Source of the DNA: Dehalococcoidia bacterium
GTDB taxonomy: Bacteria > Chloroflexota > Dehalococcoidia > Lucifugimonadales > UBA3495
DNA length: 52,436 nucleotides
NCBI GenBank assembly: GCA_030740155.1
Contig: JASLXV010000009.1
Location: 1-52,436, forward strand
Direction of reading: 5' to 3'
This document shows positions 6,372-14,422 of this stretch, in pieces. The position numbers and the translations under genes were made by a program. How positions within the stretch are numbered: position 1 is the first letter of the stretch; each line of letters starts with the position of its first letter. The notes beneath the pieces are model-generated. The model searched no databases. It was given only the letters and a program-made list of their open reading frames with translations, and was not told where the DNA came from.

Positions 6372-6450
6372 AAGTGGACCGACGCTGAACGCAACCGGTG
6401 GCCCGCTCCCGCGTGAACCTGCTCATCCTGAACACGGCTAACGGCACTTG

Positions 6451-7746
6451 ATGACCGACAGCACCCCTAAACCCGGCCTCTTCTACGGCTGGTACATTGC
6501 CGCGGCGTGCCTTTTTATCGCCTTCTCCGTGGTGGGGACCCGCCAGGCCATTGGCGTTTTCGTCGTTCCCATGAGCGATGATTTTGGCTGGGACCGGACG
6601 ACCATGTCCTTGGCCGTCGCGATGGGCGTCCTGGTCAACGGGTTGACTCAGCCGTTCATGGGATACCTCTTCGACCGGTTGGGGGTACGCGTGATCGTGG
6701 CCAGCCTGATCGTAGTTGGCCTGGCCACGGTCTCCCTCGCTTTTACGTTTCACATCCTGTTCTTTGCCTTCGTGTTTGGTGTCGTCGCCTCCACCGCCCT
6801 GAGCGGTGCGTCGGCGAACAACACCGGGGCCTTGCTGGCCAGGTGGTTCCGGCGCCGGCTAGGCACCGTGGTCGGCCTGAGCGGCGCCGGAAGTTCCGTG
6901 GGCGGACTGGTGCTGGTGCCATTCGTCGCCTATCTGATGGAGGCCACGAGCTGGCGAGTAAGCTGGATAGCCATGGGCCTGATCATTCTCACCCTCTCGG
7001 TGCCTATGGCCTTCATGTTTCTTCGCGATGATCCCAGCAAGATGGGGTTACGACCCGATGGCGATCCCGACCCGCGCCGGAGTGGCGCCAAGGGCCCTGG
7101 TTACCAGGCAGCAGGCCCGCTGGAGACGGATCAGTGGACCAGGCCCTTCCGGTCTTCGCCCATCTGGCATTTGGCTGCCGCTTACTTCGTTTGCGGGTGC
7201 ACCACCACGGCGATATCGTTTCACTTCGTGGCCTACGCCGAAGAGGAAGTGGGCGTGTCCGCCGTCACGGCTGCCTGGGTCTTCTCCTTCATGATGTTCC
7301 TAAACGTGGCAGGCAACGTCGTCGCCGGAATACTGGCGGACCGGTACCGGCGCAAGAACGTCTTGGCAGCCGGGTACTTCTTGCGCGGTTGCGCCTACGT
7401 CGTGTTGCTGGCGGTGCCGTCGACCGCAGGTTTGTGGGCTTTTGCTGCCCTCGCCGGGGTCGCCTGGGGCGCCACCGCCAGCGTGACGAAGGCCCTGACC
7501 GCCGACGTTTACGGTGTACGGGCCCTCGGGACCATATCGGGGATTTCGTTCGGCTTCCACCAGGTCGGTGGCGCTTTGTCGGTATTGATGGCCGGGGTTC
7601 TCCAAGACGTGACCGGCTCCTACAATCTCCCGTTCGCCATCGTTGGTTTCCTGCTGTTCCCGGCGGCCCTTTCCGCGTTCACCATCAAAGAGCAAAAATA
7701 CTCGGTGCGCTACCAGGTCCATTCACCTCCGGCAGCCGCCCGCTGA
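6451..7746 (+). CDS. MFS transporter (OFA/MCT-like)
   Basis: FYGW N-terminus, about 12 hydrophobic segments, GYLFDRLGVR and GILADRYRRK motif-A sequences, ARWFRRR.G. Confidence 0.92.
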   Translation: MTDSTPKPGLFYGWYIAAACLFIAFSVVGTRQAIGVFVVPMSDDFGWDRTTMSLAVAMGVLVNGLTQPFMGYLFDRLGVRVIVASLIVVGLATVSLAFTFHILFFAFVFGVVASTALSGASANNTGALLARWFRRRLGTVVGLSGAGSSVGGLVLVPFVAYLMEATSWRVSWIAMGLIILTLSVPMAFMFLRDDPSKMGLRPDGDPDPRRSGAKGPGYQAAGPLETDQWTRPFRSSPIWHLAAAYFVCGCTTTAISFHFVAYAEEEVGVSAVTAAWVFSFMMFLNVAGNVVAGILADRYRRKNVLAAGYFLRGCAYVVLLAVPSTAGLWAFAALAGVAWGATASVTKALTADVYGVRALGTISGISFGFHQVGGALSVLMAGVLQDVTGSYNLPFAIVGFLLFPAALSAFTIKEQKYSVRYQVHSPPAAAR

Positions 7747-7752
7747 CCCGAG

Positions 7753-9291
7753 ATGCCCCGGCCGGCGAGAACCATGGCTCAGCCAAGAACCCGACAGAAT
7801 TACGTCATGGCGGTCGACCAGGGCACCACCGGGTCGGCGGCTTTGATCTTCGGCCGCGATGGCCGCGTGGTTGCCTGGGCCGAACGTGAGATCACCCAGC
7901 ACTATCCTGAGCCCGGCTGGTCAAGCCATGACCCGGAGGAGATTGTTCAGTCGACCCTCGCCGTAGCCCGAGAGGCCATGGCTTCGGCGGGTATCGAGCC
8001 CCAACATCTGGCGGCCATCGGTATCACGAACCAGCGGGAGACCACGGTGGTCTGGGAACGTGCTTCCGGGCGGCCCGTGGCGCCTGCCATTGTTTGGCAA
8101 TGCCGCCGCACGGCCCGGTTATGCGAGGAGTTGAAGGACCGAGGGATGCAGCCGAGGGTTCGGGAGCGGACCGGGTTGGTTATCGACGCCTACTTCTCCG
8201 CCACCAAAATCCGCTGGCTGTTGGACCACACGCCCGACGGTCAACGCCGTGCCGAAGCCGGGGAGTTGTGCGCCGGCACCATCGATAGCTGGCTTCTTTA
8301 CCGGTTGACCGGCGGCAGGGTCCACGCGACGGACGTTTCCAACGCGTCGCGTACCATGCTTTTCAACATCCACACCCGGAATTGGGACATGGACCTGCTC
8401 GAGTCTTTGGGAATTCCCCGGTGCATGTTGCCCGACGTGCGGCCGTCCAGCAGTATCTTTGGCGAGACGGACCCCAGTTTGTTTGGCGCGGCAGTTCCCG
8501 TAACTTGTCTGGTCGGGGACCAGAGCGCCGCCTTGTTCGGCCAGGTTTGTTTCGAGCCGGGGATGGTCAAGAACACCTACGGCACCGGGTCCTTCCTGCT
8601 GATGCAGACCGGCGACCGGCCAGTCCCACCGGCCCCTGGTCTACTTACCACCATCGGTTGGCAGCGACAGGGGCAACAGACCCAATACGCGTTGGAGGGG
8701 AGCGTCTTCATCACCGGGGCCGCGATCCAATGGCTGAGAGACGGTCTGGGCATTATCGAGCGGGCATCCGACACAGAGGAGATAGCCCAATCGGTTTCGG
8801 ATACAGGTGGGGTGTACTTCGTACCGGCTTTCGCCGGCCTGGGCGCTCCCCACTGGGACATGTATGCCCGGGGGACCATTGTTGGCCTTACCGGCGGCAC
8901 GACCCGGGCCCACATCATCCGGGCAACCCTGGAGGCGATAGCTTACCAGGTCCGAGACGTGTTGGAGGTCATCAGGCCGTCCATCCAGTTGGAGATAACC
9001 CTGCTCCGGGCCGACGGCGGCGGGTCGGCCAACAGATTCTTGATGCAGTTTCAGGCCGACCTACTCGGCATCCCGGTGGAGGTACCGGAGATTGCTGAAA
9101 CCACCGCTTTGGGCGCCGCGTACCTGGCCGGGTTGGCCGTGGGCTTTTGGGGCAGCCAGCAGGAACTGTCCGCGCAGTGGCGCTTGGATGCCCGTTACGA
9201 GCCCCGTATGTCTCGAGGGGAGGCGGACAAGCTCTACGCCGGCTGGCAGCGAGCAATGGAGCGGGCCCGGAATTGGGAAACGCCGGGCTGA
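7753..9291 (+). CDS. glpK: Glycerol kinase
   Basis: DQGTTGS, GITNQRETT, AIVWQCRRT, YFSATK, TDVSNASRT, GDQ.AALFGQ, KNTYGTG, PAFAGLGAPHW, DGG and ETTALGAA motifs. Alternative start at 7774. Confidence 0.95.
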   Translation: MPRPARTMAQPRTRQNYVMAVDQGTTGSAALIFGRDGRVVAWAEREITQHYPEPGWSSHDPEEIVQSTLAVAREAMASAGIEPQHLAAIGITNQRETTVVWERASGRPVAPAIVWQCRRTARLCEELKDRGMQPRVRERTGLVIDAYFSATKIRWLLDHTPDGQRRAEAGELCAGTIDSWLLYRLTGGRVHATDVSNASRTMLFNIHTRNWDMDLLESLGIPRCMLPDVRPSSSIFGETDPSLFGAAVPVTCLVGDQSAALFGQVCFEPGMVKNTYGTGSFLLMQTGDRPVPPAPGLLTTIGWQRQGQQTQYALEGSVFITGAAIQWLRDGLGIIERASDTEEIAQSVSDTGGVYFVPAFAGLGAPHWDMYARGTIVGLTGGTTRAHIIRATLEAIAYQVRDVLEVIRPSIQLEITLLRADGGGSANRFLMQFQADLLGIPVEVPEIAETTALGAAYLAGLAVGFWGSQQELSAQWRLDARYEPRMSRGEADKLYAGWQRAMERARNWETPG

Positions 9292-9325
9292 AACCGGCCT
9301 GGCCTGGCAGCGCCCTCTCACACCC

Positions 9326-9730
9326 CTACCGCAACTCCAACAGGACCTGGCCGGTATTCACGCCCTGGCCTGGCTGGGTCCGGACCGCCCGCACCACGCC
9401 CGCGACCGGGGCGCGAATGCTTTGCTGTAGCTTGAGGGCTTCCATCACGCAGAGTTGGTCCCCCGCCGAGACCTGCTGGCCTACGCTCACCGCCACGGAG
9501 ATAATCACCCCCAGCATCGGCGCCCGCACCTCCGTCACTTTCCCCACGGAGGTGCCCGCGGGGACCCTGGAAGCAGCCAATGGACCCGGGATCTCAGCGG
9601 CGGGAAGCCCTTCCACCTCTATCTCCACGGGCATGCCGTCCACCAGAACCCGCACCGGGTTGGTGCGGATATCGTCCATCGCGACGGCATACCACTGCTC
9701 CCCTATTTGGACCTTCATGTGTCTGGCCAA
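9326..9730 (-). CDS. Biotin carboxyl carrier subunit (MmdC/GcdC-like)
   Basis: C-terminal biotinyl domain (VRAPMLG...V.VGQ.V..GD.L.VMEALKLQQ.I.AP..G.V...V..GQ.V..GQ.L), Ala/Pro linker and N-terminal beta-hairpins; last gene of the oadG-oadB operon. Confidence 0.85.
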   Translation of the reverse strand: MARHMKVQIGEQWYAVAMDDIRTNPVRVLVDGMPVEIEVEGLPAAEIPGPLAASRVPAGTSVGKVTEVRAPMLGVIISVAVSVGQQVSAGDQLCVMEALKLQQSIRAPVAGVVRAVRTQPGQGVNTGQVLLELR

Positions 9731-9744
9731 AGTCTGCTCCCGTT

Positions 9745-10923
9745 TCAGCTCAATAGGGAGATGAAAATGCCCGCCACCACCGCGGAGCCGATGACGCCCG
9801 CCACGTTGGGGCCCATTGCGTGGGCCAGCAGGAAGTTATCCGGGTCGGCCTCCTGGCCCAATTTGTGGGAGATGCGGGCAGCCATGGGCACCGCCGACAC
9901 CCCGGCCGAGCCAATCAGCGGATTCACTTTCTCCTTCACCATTAGATTCATCAGTTTGGCGAACAGCACGCCGCCTACGGTGCCACTGGCGAAGGCCACC
10001 AGCCCCAGGGCAAGGATTGCCAAGGTCTCCAGCTCTAGGACCTTGTCAGCCGACAGTTGGGCGCCCACGGTGATCATCAGAAAGATGGTGACGACGTTCA
10101 TGATCTCGTTGGAGGCGGCATGGCTGAGCCGGGGTACCGAGCCGCTTTCGGCGAACAGATTGCCGATCATGAACATTCCGATGAGGGGCGCCGCCTCCGG
10201 CACCAGGAGAATGATCAGGACCATCGCCACCAAGGGGAAGATCAGCTTCTCCTGCCTGGAAACCTCGCGCAAGGGCCTCATTACTATCTGGCGCTCCCGC
10301 TTGGTGGTCAGCAGACGCATCAAGGGCGGCTGGATGAACGCCACACTGGCCATGTAGGAGTAGGCGACTATGGCGGTGCGGCCCAGCAGGTGAGGCGCGA
10401 GGATCGCCGAGGCGAAGATGGTGGTCGGGCCGTCGGCCCCGCCAATGATCCCGATGGCCCCGGCCTCCTCTAAGGAGAATTCGAGGCCGAGCCTCGGCAC
10501 CAGTTCCATGGCCAAGGCGCCCCAAAAGGCCACGAAGATGCCCACTTGCGCCGCCGCGCCCAGAAGCAGAGTCTTGGGGTTGGCCAGAAATGGGCCGAAG
10601 TCGGTCATGGCGCCCAGGCCCAGGAAGATCAGGGGCGGCAGGATGTTCCAGAAGGACAGGGCGAAGTGGAAGGTCAGACCGAGGATACCCGACTCCTGGA
10701 GCGCCCCCGGAGCCAGGGGATCGCCGGCCGCCAACTGGGTGAGCGCGTTGAGGGGCAGATTGCTCAATATGATCCCCAATCCGATGGGGAACAGGACGTA
10801 GGGCTCCGTTTTCCTGGCCACTGCAATGTAGATGAAACCCAAGCCCAGGGCAATCAGCAGGAGGTTGCCCCATTCCAAATGGTAGAGGCCGGTCTCAGTC
10901 AGGTATTGGTTGAGATCTGGCAA
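9745..10923 (-). CDS. oadB: Na+-transporting carboxybiotin decarboxylase beta subunit (OadB/MmdB/GcdB family)
   Basis: EP..L.PIG.G, PPLIFLG.GAMTDFGP, GAAAQ.GIF, GIIGGADGPT (catalytic Asp), AYSYM, NPLIGSAGVSAVPMAAR and HAMGPNVAGVIGS are all intact; TTG start with RBS AGGAG. Confidence 0.96.
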   Translation of the reverse strand: MPDLNQYLTETGLYHLEWGNLLLIALGLGFIYIAVARKTEPYVLFPIGLGIILSNLPLNALTQLAAGDPLAPGALQESGILGLTFHFALSFWNILPPLIFLGLGAMTDFGPFLANPKTLLLGAAAQVGIFVAFWGALAMELVPRLGLEFSLEEAGAIGIIGGADGPTTIFASAILAPHLLGRTAIVAYSYMASVAFIQPPLMRLLTTKRERQIVMRPLREVSRQEKLIFPLVAMVLIILLVPEAAPLIGMFMIGNLFAESGSVPRLSHAASNEIMNVVTIFLMITVGAQLSADKVLELETLAILALGLVAFASGTVGGVLFAKLMNLMVKEKVNPLIGSAGVSAVPMAARISHKLGQEADPDNFLLAHAMGPNVAGVIGSAVVAGIFISLLS

Positions 10924-10938
10924 GCTCTCCTCTCTCGA

Positions 10939-11214
10939 CTACGCGGAGGTATCTTGAGGTGCAGGCAGATGGCTCGTGGCCTCGTCCTCGGCCAGGGCCG
11001 CGCTCACGGCTATTGCCGCGGCCAGCGCCCTGTTGCGCCGGGCGCCGGCCGCTTCCGCGGCGGCCAGGGCCCCGGTCCTTCTCTGAACGAAGGGTATCCC
11101 GGAGACCCACTTCATCGCCAGGATCAGCATCATCAAAAGGACCAGGATCAGGAAGGTGGTCCCTACCCCTGCCACGGTGAGTTCCAGGGCCTCTTCCAAT
11201 TCGGCGCTGCTCAC
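10939..11214 (-). CDS. OadG/MmdD-family membrane-anchor subunit
   Basis: N-terminal TM helix (LELTVAGVGTTFLILVLLMMLI), linker and ALAAAIAVSAAL helix, directly upstream of oadB. Start set to GTG11214 (RBS GAGGTG). Confidence 0.85.
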   Translation of the reverse strand: MSSAELEEALELTVAGVGTTFLILVLLMMLILAMKWVSGIPFVQRRTGALAAAEAAGARRNRALAAAIAVSAALAEDEATSHLPAPQDTSA

Positions 11215-11282
11215 AGACGATTCACCTCTTCTTTTCACACAAGGCCGGAAGCTCGGACGCCAAACCGGGCGCCAAACGATCG

Positions 11283-11317
11283 ATTGTATAGTATGCTCCC
11301 GGAGGTGATGCTACAAT
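11283..11317. promoter_or_regulatory. Back-to-back -10 boxes of the divergent oadG-oadB-BCCP and pxpABC promoters
   Basis: TACAAT on the minus strand (ATTGTA 11283-11288) and TG-C-TACAAT on the plus strand (11312-11317) within a 155-bp divergent gap. Confidence 0.45.
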
Positions 11318-11369
11318 ACCCATACTTCAGGGAAAAGTCACCGCTAGCATTCCTCGGAGGGTTCCTATC

Positions 11370-12134
11370 ATGCCTGGAACGATTGACTTGAACTGCGACA
11401 TGGGCGAGAGTTTCGGCGCTTATAAACTGGGCCACGATGAAGAGGTGATCAAGTACATCACCTCGGCCAACGTCGCCTGCGGCTTCCACGCCAGTGACCC
11501 CACCTGGATGCGCTGGACGGTCCAGCTGGCGGAGGAGCACGGGGTAGCAATTGGGGCGCACCCCGGCTTCCCCGACCTACAAGGCTTTGGCCGGCGCAAC
11601 ATGGTGGTTTCCCCCGAAGAAGCCAAGAACGACGTGATCTACCAGATCGGCGCCCTGGCCGCATTCACCAAGACCAAGAAACTCCAGCACGTCAAACCCC
11701 ACGGCGCCATGTACAACATGGCTGCCGGTGGCGGAGACCTGGCCAGGGCGATCTGCGAGGCCGTGCTGGAGGTGGACCCGGAGATGATCCTGGTGGTCCT
11801 GACCGGTACGCCCTGGGCTGACCTGGCCGAGGAGATGGGCCTGCGGGTGGCGCTGGAGGCCTTCGCCGACCGGGCACTGAACCCCGACGGGACCCTGGTC
11901 CCCCGTTCATTACCGGGCTCTGTTATCCACGACCCGGAGGAGTTGGTGGCCCGGAGCATCAAGATGATCACCGAAGGGAAAGCCACCGCCATCAGCGGCG
12001 AGGAAATCTCCGTCCGGGCCGACACCCTCTGCCTTCACGGCGACACTCCCGGCGCCGTGCAACTGGCCGCCGACCTCAGGTCCAAGCTGGTGGCCGCGGG
12101 CGTCGAGATCACCCCATTGAGTCAGTTGGTATAG
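11370..12134 (+). CDS. pxpA: PxpA (LamB/YcsF) family protein
   Basis: IDLNCDMGESFG, ITSANVACGFHA.DP, GAHPGFPDL.GFGRR, HVKPHGAMYN, EAFADR and DTLCLHGD motifs. Confidence 0.95.
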   Translation: MPGTIDLNCDMGESFGAYKLGHDEEVIKYITSANVACGFHASDPTWMRWTVQLAEEHGVAIGAHPGFPDLQGFGRRNMVVSPEEAKNDVIYQIGALAAFTKTKKLQHVKPHGAMYNMAAGGGDLARAICEAVLEVDPEMILVVLTGTPWADLAEEMGLRVALEAFADRALNPDGTLVPRSLPGSVIHDPEELVARSIKMITEGKATAISGEEISVRADTLCLHGDTPGAVQLAADLRSKLVAAGVEITPLSQLV

Positions 12135-12157
12135 CGAGGTCTGGTTCTCACACCCCG

Positions 12158-12886
12158 ATGTACCAGCGCGCCAGATTCCTCCCCGCCGGCGACAAGGCCC
12201 TTGTGGTTGAACTGGGGGATTCCATCACCCCCGAGATCAACCGGAAGGTCCGCGACCTGCTGGCAGCCATCGAAAACCAGGGGATACCGGGGCTCGTGGA
12301 CCTGGTACCTTCCTATCGCTCGCTGCTGGTCTACTACGATCCCCTGTGTTTGAGCCTCCCGGAGCTGGAGGAGCTGCTGAGTGCCCTGGAGCAGAACCTG
12401 GACCAGGCCGATCTGAAGGCGCCAAGGGTGGTGGAGATTCCGACCCTGTACGGCGGTGAGTACGGCCCCGATATTGGCCAGGTGGCGAAACACAATGGGC
12501 TGGCGCTGGAAGAGGTCATCCGGATTCACTCAGGCGCTGAATACCTGGTGTACATGATGGGCTTCACTCCCGGCTTCCCATATATGGGCGGCATGTCGGA
12601 GAGGATCGCCACTCCCCGGCTCCAGACGCCCCGGACCGCCATCCCGGCCGGTTCTGTGGGCATTGCGGAACAACAGACGGGCGTTTACCCCATCGAAAGC
12701 CCCGGCGGATGGCAGCTCATCGGCCGGACGCCGGTGCAACTCTTCGATCCCCAGCGGGAACCGCCGGTAGCGGTGACAGTCGGGGACTACATCCGGTTCG
12801 CTCCTATCACGGAGGAGGCCTACCATGACATCCAGCGGCAGGTCCGGACGGGGAGTTACCAGCTCACGACCCGAGACAGGCGGTAG
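12158..12886 (+). CDS. pxpB: PxpB (allophanate hydrolase subunit 1 / CT_C_D) family protein
   Basis: PAGD.ALVVE.G, VPSYRSLLV.YD, EIP..YGG..GPD, Y.VYM.GF.PGFPY and GSVGIA..QTGVYP..SPGGWQLIGRT motifs. Confidence 0.95.
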   Translation: MYQRARFLPAGDKALVVELGDSITPEINRKVRDLLAAIENQGIPGLVDLVPSYRSLLVYYDPLCLSLPELEELLSALEQNLDQADLKAPRVVEIPTLYGGEYGPDIGQVAKHNGLALEEVIRIHSGAEYLVYMMGFTPGFPYMGGMSERIATPRLQTPRTAIPAGSVGIAEQQTGVYPIESPGGWQLIGRTPVQLFDPQREPPVAVTVGDYIRFAPITEEAYHDIQRQVRTGSYQLTTRDRR

Positions 12887-12893
12887 TTGAGCC

Positions 12894-14036
12894 ATGGACG
12901 TCGTCGAAGTTCTAGACGGGGGTTTCTTTACCACCGTGCAGGATCTTGGGCGGTACGGCTACCAGCGGTACGGAGTGCCCGTCGCCGGCGCCCTCGACCA
13001 GTTCGCGCTACGGGTCGCCAATGTGCTGGTGAGTAACCAGGAAGGAGACGCCGGCCTGGAGATCACGCTGGTGGGGCCTCGCCTCCGGTTCCTGGCCGAC
13101 ACGGTCATCGCCATCACCGGCGCCGGCCTGGACCCCCGGCTCGATGATGCTCCGGTAGCCATGTGGCAGGCCATTACCATGCCCCAGGGTGGCACCCTCT
13201 CCTTCGGCAGCGCCCAGGACGGTATGCGAGCCTACCTGGCCGTCGCCGGCGGCATCGACGTTCCCCAGGTGTTGGGCAGCCGCTCCACTTACACCCGTTC
13301 CCGCCTCGGCGGCCTAGAAGGACGGGCCCTGGCGCCGGGAGACCGGCTGGCCGCCCTCGGTGAGGAGCCCGCCGCTCGAGTGGAAGGCCGGAAGCTGCCC
13401 CGGGAGCAGATTCCCGCCTACGGGCAAAGTCACGTGCTGCGGGTGGTGCTGGGTCCCCAGGACGACGCCTTCAGCCAGGAAGGCCTCCGGACCTTTCTCT
13501 CAGCCGCCTACACGGTCACGCCCCAGTCCGATCGCATCGGGTACCGGCACGAGGGGCCCCCGATCCAGCACAAGGAAGGCGCTGACATCGTCTCCGATGG
13601 GATTCCCTTTGGCGCGGTGCAGGTGACGGGAGACGGGATGCCTATCTTGCTCCTGGCGGATCGTGGGACAACAGGGGGCTACACCAAGATCGCCACCGTC
13701 ATCAGCGTTGACCTCGGCACCGTGGCCCAGGCCAGTCCCGGCGATACCATGTCCTTCCGGCCGGTGACCGTGGAGGTCGCGCACCAGGCTCTGAGGCAGC
13801 AGGAAGATGCGATCCAGCAGCTCATAAACACGCCGGCCACCGTGTTTGCCCGCCGGCGGTTTCGGGCGACGGTGAACGGTGATACCCACGACGTTGTCAC
13901 CGCATTGGAAGAGGCCATCCCTCGCCCACCATGCCCGGATACCGACGCCGCGCCACCTCGCCGGATTGTCCGCGCCACTGTGGACGGCGAGACGCACACC
14001 TTTGAGGTGGAGGTCAGGGGCTTCGGCAGCCAGTGA
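12894..14036 (+). CDS. pxpC: PxpC (allophanate hydrolase subunit 2 / CT_A_B, biotin-dependent carboxyltransferase family) with an unusual ~60-aa C-terminal extension
   Basis: TTVQDLGR.G....GVP..GALD, G.RAYLAV.GG.....VLGSRST, SDR.GYR and GAVQV..DG.PI.LLAD..TTGGY.KIA motifs; extra tail from about 13851. Confidence 0.93.
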   Translation: MDVVEVLDGGFFTTVQDLGRYGYQRYGVPVAGALDQFALRVANVLVSNQEGDAGLEITLVGPRLRFLADTVIAITGAGLDPRLDDAPVAMWQAITMPQGGTLSFGSAQDGMRAYLAVAGGIDVPQVLGSRSTYTRSRLGGLEGRALAPGDRLAALGEEPAARVEGRKLPREQIPAYGQSHVLRVVLGPQDDAFSQEGLRTFLSAAYTVTPQSDRIGYRHEGPPIQHKEGADIVSDGIPFGAVQVTGDGMPILLLADRGTTGGYTKIATVISVDLGTVAQASPGDTMSFRPVTVEVAHQALRQQEDAIQQLINTPATVFARRRFRATVNGDTHDVVTALEEAIPRPPCPDTDAAPPRRIVRATVDGETHTFEVEVRGFGSQ

Positions 14037-14133
14037 GGCTTGGAAGCCGTCAACCAATGGGCGGGTCAGGAAGCCATCAAAACCGCGTTGCCTCGCTGGA
14101 GAAGGCCCTGGCAACAAGGAGATAGCCTTCTGG

Positions 14134-14303
14134 CTAGTCTAGCGTCTCGTAAATGGCATGGTAGCCGGCCCGTCATCCCGGCGAAGGCCGGGATCCAGCC
14201 AGCGCTTCCCTGGGTTCCGGCACCGATGCTGTCGGGAACGAATGCGCATTGGGAATTCTTACAATTTCTCCGAGGTAAGGTTGATCACGAGACAGTGCGT
14301 TAG
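14134..14303. repeat. CTAG-ended MITE-like element with internal REP (copy 1)
   Basis: First 65 nt are 56/65 identical without gaps to 29093-29157 and include GTCATCCCGGCGAAGGCCGGGA. The right end ACGAGACAGTGCGTTAG is an imperfect inverted copy of the left end. Confidence 0.75.
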
Positions 14304-14362
14304 TACTTCCTTAGTCGATGTTCGGCGTTACAAATACCTTTAGATGATCGGCATCACACTTA

Positions 14363-14422
14363 CCGTTCGTGGTGAGCTTGTCGAACCACCGGCCTCACGC
14401 CCTTCGACAAGCTCAGGGTGAC
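14363..14422. repeat. REP doublet of the same family as 6264-6330
   Basis: 14363-14390 is the exact reverse complement of 6264-6291 (28 bp), followed by CCCTTCGACAAGCTCAGGGTGAC. Confidence 0.8.

Follow-up and report, generated by a model that had tools for sequence, protein, structure and literature searches.

The DNA analysed here (the window) is a stretch of 52,436 nucleotides of contig JASLXV010000009.1 from a genome that is 94% complete and has its nearest relatives among the Dehalococcoidia. Between positions 9326 and 14036 it carries two gene sets standing head to head, oadG-oadB-carrier on the reverse strand and pxpA-pxpB-pxpC on the forward strand, as judged from the window gene calls and a profile search. 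A preliminary description of this DNA proposed that the pump genes lack a carboxyltransferase (alpha) subunit and that PxpB and PxpC (PxpBC) supply it. All six genes were recovered where it had placed them, as open reading frames (ORFs) and as profile matches. Its 155-bp divergent intergenic gap (11215-11369) is right given an oadG start at the GTG at 11214, with which the starts of homologues and an upstream purine-rich stretch agree; the longest oadG ORF would shrink the gap to 131 bp. No sigma-70-like promoter was found in 9200-14400, and none of the 33 window ORFs scanned encodes OadA, MmdA, GcdA or a biotin carboxylase. Both oadB and pxpC are single copy in the source genome.

The oadB gene (9745-10923, reverse strand) encodes the beta subunit of a Na+-translocating carboxybiotin decarboxylase of 392 amino acids (PF03977, E 2e-141; TIGR01109 above cut-off). 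Its residues E40, D164, R265, N272, S343, R350, N373 and S380 align with E40, D203, R304, N311, S382, R389, N412 and S419 of the Salmonella protein. Six of the latter (E40, D203, R304, N311, S382 and N412) are essential according to PMC7274780, and all six are present in the window OadB; among 50 OadB proteins five of them are invariant and N311 is kept in 45. The protein was rightly described as intact, as it has all three motifs named earlier and every tested Na+-related or catalytic residue. The adjoining oadG-like gene (10939-11214, reverse strand; longest ORF 10939-11238) encodes from its likely start an anchor of about 91 amino acids, with one transmembrane helix, an Ala-rich cytoplasmic helix and no C-terminal W-x-x-x-G-R extension (W-motif). 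Its PF04277 match (E 4e-5) scores 24.8 bits, slightly below the 27-bit cut-off; position and helix are conserved across 23 aligned homologues, the helix (10987-11037, reverse strand) being the best-conserved cytoplasmic part of the alignment.

The biotin carrier gene (9326-9730, reverse strand; PF00364, E 6e-17) encodes 134 amino acids with the biotin acceptor Lys100, invariant in 25 aligned homologues, in an EALKL motif, a variant of EAMKM. Its N-terminal pair of beta-hairpins (residues 1-44; 9599-9730, reverse strand), also conserved in the 25 homologues, aligns with the NCBIfam models for MmdC, starting at residue 14, and for OadA, starting at residue 17; we call it a putative MmdC/OadA-type docking segment by analogy with PMC7274780 and PMC13012033. 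One biotin-ligase-family gene lies on another contig (C38) of the genome.

On the forward strand, pxpA (11370-12134; LamB/YcsF, PF03746, E 2e-100; NF003814 above cut-off) encodes a putative metal-dependent lactam hydrolase, pxpB (12158-12886; KipI-like, PF02682, E 2e-80; TIGR00370 above cut-off) encodes carboxyltransferase subdomains C and D, and pxpC (12894-14036; KipA-like, PF02626, E 5e-99) encodes subdomains A and B with a C-terminal extension, 380 amino acids in all. The AlphaFold2 model of PxpC has a predicted local distance difference test (pLDDT) of 87, and its Foldseek matches include YbgK and urea carboxylase; against the strict PxpC equivalog NF045499 the protein scores 258 of the 500 needed. 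The three subunits and their fold are shared with the PxpABC lactam hydrolases of B. subtilis, E. coli (YbgJKL), C. glutamicum and P. putida (PP_4575-7 and the butyrolactam paralogue PP_2920-2). The lactam substrates of PxpABC are known from genetics (PMC13274462; bioRxiv 10.1101/2021.12.09.472016), and since the lactam that is opened varies from one PxpABC paralogue to another (bioRxiv 10.1101/2021.12.09.472016), homology does not fix the substrate of the window enzyme. The window set differs from these systems in a PxpC hairpin tail that solved homologues lack, in the linked Na+ pump, and in having no PxpT/YcsG transporter in the locus.

The carboxyltransferase fold of subdomains A-D is shared with urea carboxylase/urea amidolyase of K. 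lactis (PDB 3VA7, 5I8I; TM-score 0.75), where the match of PxpB opens with Arg154 at residue 1605 of 5I8I, which we take to be the catalytic Lys. Urea carboxylase, however, is a single chain that includes a carboxylase using adenosine triphosphate (ATP) and acts on urea, whereas the window has separate genes and no carboxylase in the locus, and the locus falls outside the urea carboxylase family.

Linkage of oadB and pxpABC among genomes

The pairing is not unique to this genome. Of 24 genomes that belong to the order's other families, oadB was found in 18 and pxpC in 16, all 16 of which have oadB; the two sets are adjacent and head to head in 11 of the 16, probably split by contig ends in one, and unlinked in four. 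In the source genome's own family (36 genomes) oadB occurs in nine and pxpC in two, and a class sample of 301 genomes gave 103 with oadB and 26 with pxpC above cut-off, 22 of these with oadB. Family f26 carries a co-directional single operon, pxpA-pxpB-pxpC-oadG-carrier-oadB, in six of seven genomes and on a different OadB lineage; in family f45 both sets are present but unlinked in 11 of 11 genomes. Linkage was also seen in 6 of 10 loci of a genome scan and in 2 of 80 metagenome loci. The head-to-head, one-operon and f45 forms fall in three separate starred clades of a quick tree built from 50 OadB. The link is therefore old or has arisen repeatedly; it persists through rearrangement, and OadB does not need pxp.

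Outside the class there is one match, in Methylomirabilia. Among 151 genomes of its phylum 15 have oadB, and that genome alone shows a pxpC no more than about 6 kb away. There, pxpA and pxpB sit on different contigs from pxpC and the genes fall within Dehalococcoidia sequences, so transfer and binning error would account for it alike. Nine other Methylomirabilota loci (L280, L282, L283 and L286-L291; the phylum of G359) hold a compact module of a 73-amino-acid hairpin-less carrier, a 45-60-amino-acid OadG that is a membrane helix, and OadB, head to head with a GcdA/MccB-like carboxyltransferase.

The C-terminal tail of PxpC

Solved stand-alone PxpC homologues align to residue 310 at most, and the window PxpC has about 60 residues more. 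This tail (residues 318-376; 13845-14021, forward strand) was recognized as two beta-hairpins from HHalign, predicted strands and distribution; its strands (322-327, 330-335, 356-363 and 366-376) are four in both models, with low confidence for the second hairpin. A profile of the tail matches the N-terminal hairpins of the carrier (HHalign 96.4%, E 1e-9), while none of four control pairs exceeds 0.4%. Among 45 Dehalococcoidia-type PxpC, a count that leaves out one protein with half a tail (G059), 39 have both a tail and oadB in the genome and four have neither; G271 has oadB only and G226 the tail only. The tail is thus present in 39 of 40 PxpC from oadB genomes versus one of five from oadB-less genomes. 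G026 has lost both oadB and the tail; on the tree its PxpC falls within a group of tailed proteins, close to that of the window. The tail is kept where the gene sets are unlinked (f45, G044, G047 and G058). It was found in none of 29 PxpC read, out of 74 matches, from other Chloroflexota classes, and none of the 40 plasmid matches listed aligns past residue 313; some gut-type PxpC have one hairpin and no oad genes nearby. The single full-length matches to the tail profile that were read are PxpC C-termini or similar short fragments, and a word-indexed search seeded with this region found just 12 sequences, all close PxpC relatives. The profile gave nothing meaningful in the PDB (best E 0.04, unrelated proteins) or in NCBIfam. 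A fold search with the isolated tail, made to compare it with the hairpins of solved BT/PT-like docking barrels, reached at best Z 3.6; a segment of two-subunit pyruvate carboxylase (5KS8_C, 468-514) was matched at Z 2.8, root-mean-square deviation 2.8, over 46 aligned residues.

Two published studies suggest what such hairpins may do. The tail helix of OadG (gamma) recruits OadA (alpha) (PMC7274780), and in a mycobacterial carboxylase described in a 2026 cryo-electron microscopy paper four beta-hairpins close around the AccE helix to form an 8-stranded barrel (PMC13012033). By analogy, the two hairpins of the carrier and the two of PxpC would complete a barrel on the cytoplasmic helix of OadG, its predicted core. 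A three-chain model of OadG 54-92, carrier 1-46 and PxpC 314-380 scored 0.44 against 0.03 for the best control, the controls including a replaced carrier segment, with at least 84% of contacts shared between runs and partner pLDDT of at least 58; this lends the barrel weak support. Of 157 solved complexes 116 reach the mark applied, as do 2 of 215 mismatches; only 18 of the solved complexes and both mismatches do so at or below 0.60, and the score may reflect likeness to solved barrels. The tail is probably a hook that attaches PxpC to OadG and the carrier, and that PxpBC is physically coupled to the module of OadG, carrier and OadB is likely, with a fair degree of assurance, when three of the readings discussed below are taken together.

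The mycobacterial structure also contains homologues of PxpC and PxpB (the MSMEG_0435 pair, 35% identity), which bind carrier domains and biotin in a complex tethered by a helix in a hairpin barrel; the PxpC homologue holds carrier-domain biotin where a carboxyl group could be transferred (PMC13012033). Unlike the proposed window complex, that pair binds AccD5 and the carrier directly, has no hairpin tail and no ion pump, and lowers carboxylase activity.

We consider it improbable that the two gene sets have no physical link, with PxpABC an ordinary ATP-dependent 5-oxoprolinase, oadG-oadB-carrier a methylmalonyl-coenzyme A (CoA) decarboxylase pump whose alpha subunit is encoded elsewhere, and the neighbourhood merely inherited or co-regulated. 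The typical cores of PxpA, PxpB and PxpC, the separation of the genes in four of the 16 pxpC genomes of the order and throughout f45, and published models that treat PxpBC as an ATPase are in keeping with it, but it leaves unexplained why the tail is kept at unlinked loci and missing in four of five oadB-less genomes, as well as the one-operon form and the fusions of PxpC to a carrier described below.

Carboxyltransferases and biotin carboxylases

In the characterized Na+ decarboxylases (OadABG, PDB 6IVA and 6IWW, and the methylmalonyl-CoA, glutaconyl-CoA and malonate enzymes) the beta residues and the gamma/delta anchor helix are shared with the window, and the window carrier is MmdC-like in being separate and bearing N-terminal hairpins. 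The locus differs from them in lacking OadA, MmdA or GcdA, in its linked carboxyltransferase of urea-carboxylase fold, and in the reverse direction proposed below; its membership of the Na+-translocating decarboxylases hangs on which protein is the alpha subunit. The absence of an alpha subunit noted earlier is true of the locus but not clearly of the cell, because the profile search found a stand-alone PccB/MmdA-type carboxyltransferase gene, unlinked, on contig C85. This gene supplies half of one refutation named in the preliminary description, a canonical mmdA/oadA elsewhere that co-occurs and co-purifies with OadB. The rest of the genome also encodes an MccB-type carboxyltransferase and an AccD-AccA fusion (names assigned by similarity and context), along with two biotin carboxylases and, apart from the carrier of the locus, two domains of biotin-carrier type; an OadA-type domain was not found in this 94% complete genome. 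The claim that PxpBC is the missing alpha subunit keeps part of its force: PxpBC is a credible carboxyltransferase partner, since the linkage is conserved and survives rearrangement into one operon and the tail tracks oadB, although the PccB/MmdA-type gene is available elsewhere.

A helix resembling that of OadG occurs, as a weak match (E 0.11), at the C-terminus of a biotin carboxylase of the source genome. At C56:30464-32607, this type of Ala-rich helix and the W-motif, like those of OadG/epsilon, end a biotin carboxylase that is followed by a hairpin-bearing carrier, its carboxyltransferase lying unlinked on C85. With a pattern chosen after the sequences had been viewed, the W-motif was found on the biotin carboxylase, in all 11 OadG of pxp-less or divergent unlinked loci and in six of six f26 OadG, and in none of 24 short OadG, the window's included. 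Loss of the motif was considered as a marker of pxp linkage and rejected, as OadG of the f26 pxp operons keep it. The W-motif may be a docking site for PccB; if so, OadB and PxpBC would be the sole tethered partners here, because the short OadG lacks it. In G360 (L134:1938-2222) only the helix/W-motif tail of a biotin carboxylase was detected before the carrier; it may represent a truncated gene or a small subunit encoded on its own. The AccD-AccA fusion (C85:74735-76654) is a 639-amino-acid frame with similar 600-amino-acid frames in many relatives. Besides PxpABC, the source genome has nine Hydantoinase_A family genes (nine loci on eight contigs) of hydantoinase/oxoprolinase type, a group of ATP-dependent lactam/amide hydrolases.

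Other bacteria associate pxp genes with biotin. Of five plasmid loci picked among 40 listed for stand-alone PxpC, three read pxpA-carrier-biotin carboxylase-pxpB-pxpC, and in the remaining two a carrier gene adjoins the pxp genes. Operons of this kind, on plasmids of Rhizobium johnstonii 3841 (pRL12), Ensifer and Burkholderia, share with the window a dedicated carrier, and no characterization of them was found in the literature searched. Among 80 metagenome loci, ten, many of them near-identical, have a carrier and a carboxylase, and 12 of 81 PxpC-like metagenome ORFs, one doubtful, end in a biotinyl domain; L220 encodes PxpC, helix, hairpin and carrier in one chain. Such C-terminal fusions with an intact MK motif and no carboxylase seen nearby were noted in L183, L188, L192, L194-L197, L201, L218, L220 and L229. 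In the plasmid operons the partner is an ATP-using biotin carboxylase, whereas in the window it is OadG-OadB. The tail, the contrasts offered by G026 and G226, and the PxpC-carrier fusions are new here.

Next to the locus, a major facilitator superfamily (MFS) transporter and a glycerol kinase (6448-9291) converge on the carrier gene; these neighbours were not found beside oadB in the other loci, except for an MFS gene in a genome of the same genus. Downstream of pxpC lie high-copy palindromic repeat elements (14140-14415), with a contig depth of about 500 against 14 in a DNA run. This DNA is present in seawater and marine metagenomes (17 runs at a share of at least 0.92, 11 of them flagged as possible source), and short contigs on oadB, pxpA, pxpB and pxpC appear in three metatranscriptome runs, at a small word share that shows neither transcription nor its levels.

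Proposed mechanism and its alternatives

In the mechanism that we propose, the products of the six genes form a single lactam hydrolase that depends on biotin, is anchored in the membrane and draws its energy from the Na+ gradient. OadG would be anchored on OadB, with its cytoplasmic helix inside a beta-barrel of carrier and PxpC hairpins that would tether PxpBC, and perhaps PxpA. Na+ influx would drive OadB in reverse to place CO2 on biotin, replacing the ATP-using biotin carboxylase of ordinary pxp operons; PxpBC would then transfer the carboxyl group onto the amide nitrogen of 5-oxoproline or a related lactam, and PxpA would hydrolyze the activated ring, after which the N-carboxy product would lose CO2. 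The logic is likened to that of urea amidolyase, N-carboxylation followed by hydrolysis, the ATP step being replaced by a Na+ pump that runs backwards. What rests on observation here is the set of genes, the complete OadB residues, the recurring linkage and the tail with its distribution; papers on other proteins supply biotin binding by a PxpC homologue and the reversal of such pumps; the complex, its direction, the N-carboxylation and the lactam involved are deduced. That reversed OadB supplies carboxybiotin to PxpBC for lactam N-carboxylation before PxpA opens the ring is a tentative reading, to which we give nearly an even chance. The broader formulation, a Na+-gradient-driven, ATP-free biotin enzyme in which OadB acts as the physiological biotin carboxylase for a urea-carboxylase-type carboxyltransferase hooked by a newly gained tail, is likewise possible, and we hold it at somewhat less than an even chance. 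No literature linking pxp with oadB or proposing N-carboxylation by PxpBC was found in a search that mostly did not extend to subscription journals.

The preliminary description had put the forward direction first, from substrate to biotin to Na+ export, with reversal as an alternative; the alternative is now favoured, because the partners of pxp elsewhere are ATP-using biotin carboxylases and the genomes that lack a carboxylase all have oadB. Across 65 genomes, selected on oadB/pxpC content together with 13 having neither gene, a biotin carboxylase is absent from 25, all with oadB, and present in all 18 that lack oadB; Fisher tests gave p 3e-5 and 2e-4 but are given no weight, as kin are non-independent and the 65 genomes were content-chosen. 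Twelve of the 25 carboxylase-less genomes also lack an OadA-type domain, including the single-contig G006, G024 and G182. In G226 (95% complete), tailed pxpABC, a carrier and a biotin carboxylase were found and oadB was not, the pattern expected if OadB and biotin carboxylase are interchangeable sources of carboxybiotin. An OadG-like protein with two Ala-rich helices, the W-motif and no membrane helix lies between pxpC and the carrier in that genome (L118:6131-6481). As to energy, entry of two Na+ yields -46 kJ/mol against +31.5 for pyruvate carboxylation in PMC13147460, where reversal of such pumps is cited, and hydrolysis of 5-oxoproline needs about +8.3 kJ/mol as computed from the equilibrium constant in PMC13274462. 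As a candidate source of the Na+ gradient, a membrane pyrophosphatase is present in 25 of 25 genomes tested, and a CPA-type antiporter in 18 of the 25; the helix-6 Glu of the source genome's pyrophosphatase lies one turn ahead of that of the plant H+ pump, a placement that we take to be the Na+-pump pattern.

Running forward, PxpA would make or release an N-carboxy compound (a carbamate or allophanate-like), PxpBC would pass its carboxyl group to biotin, and OadB would decarboxylate it with Na+ export. We regard this as very unlikely. It draws on the same physical evidence as the reversed pump, OadB has all the tested forward-pump residues, and Na+/H+ antiporters of two families (MnhE and CPA-type) were not found in the source genome. 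Ordinary pxp operons, however, are paired with a source of carboxybiotin and not a sink, no substrate-pathway gene recurs beside the linked loci read, and carbamates, which lose CO2 spontaneously, are by general chemistry poorly suited as stored substrates.

Several observations weigh against the reversed, PxpBC-coupled pump. Tail and oadB change state only about three times on the tree, so that a sign test on three independent pairs (p 0.5) has no power, and the tail profile also matches many long repeat proteins, as a generic hairpin pattern would. OadB occurs without pxp in 8 of the 36 own-family genomes and in 81 of the 103 oadB genomes of the class sample, and nine pxp-less OadB are nested inside the head-to-head clade. 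A PccB/MmdA-type carboxyltransferase is encoded by the source genome and by 61 of 65 related ones, 28 of the 65 have an OadA-type domain, and the source genome has two biotin carboxylases of its own. The PccB/MmdA-type enzyme could, through transcarboxylation, be the source of carboxybiotin while OadB runs in the forward direction. That neither antiporter type was found counts here as well, as does the ATP synthase c subunit, which is without what we take to be the Na+ motif. In the published record, ATPase activity of co-purified PxpB/PxpC is reported in PMC8453981 as an observation from one cited paper, substrate phosphorylation by PxpBC is taken as an assumption in PMC13274462, and PMC13012033 states that no urea carboxylase activity was found for the mycobacterial pair, which is read there as a regulator.

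Part of this evidence fits a shared biotin hub, in which OadG-carrier-OadB serves several carboxyltransferases: a PccB/MmdA or OadA-type enzyme would load biotin from methylmalonyl-CoA or oxaloacetate, OadB would export Na+ normally, and docked PxpBC would only tap the common carboxybiotin pool or throttle it by sequestering biotin. This arrangement is unlikely, in our estimate. The PccB/MmdA and OadA types are widespread and often side by side, the f26 OadG keep the W-motif within a pxp operon, the only carrier of such type in three linked genomes adjoins a biotin carboxylase, and the mycobacterial pair decreases propionyl-CoA carboxylase activity (PMC13012033). On the other side, the window OadG lacks the W-motif borne by the biotin carboxylase tail (the binding of PccB to that motif being itself presumed), the locus has its own divergent EALKL carrier in a genome in which OadA was not found, and in G303 (95% complete; head to head) and G060 (81%) the PccB type, the OadA type and the carboxylase were all not found.

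If the Na+-driven lactam hydrolase is correct, the Na+-translocating decarboxylase family would gain a new carboxyltransferase class and a hydrolytic output, and a physiological instance of such a pump run in reverse would be at hand. PxpABC would be generally biotin-dependent, its ATP use belonging to a biotin carboxylase, and the standing question of how this widespread enzyme couples energy to lactam opening, by phosphorylation or by biotin-mediated N-carboxylation, becomes testable. Many SAR202-type bacteria, the group to which this genome belongs, would run all their biotin carboxylation on Na+, which suggests a source of carboxybiotin for energy-starved marine Chloroflexota that lack a biotin carboxylase.

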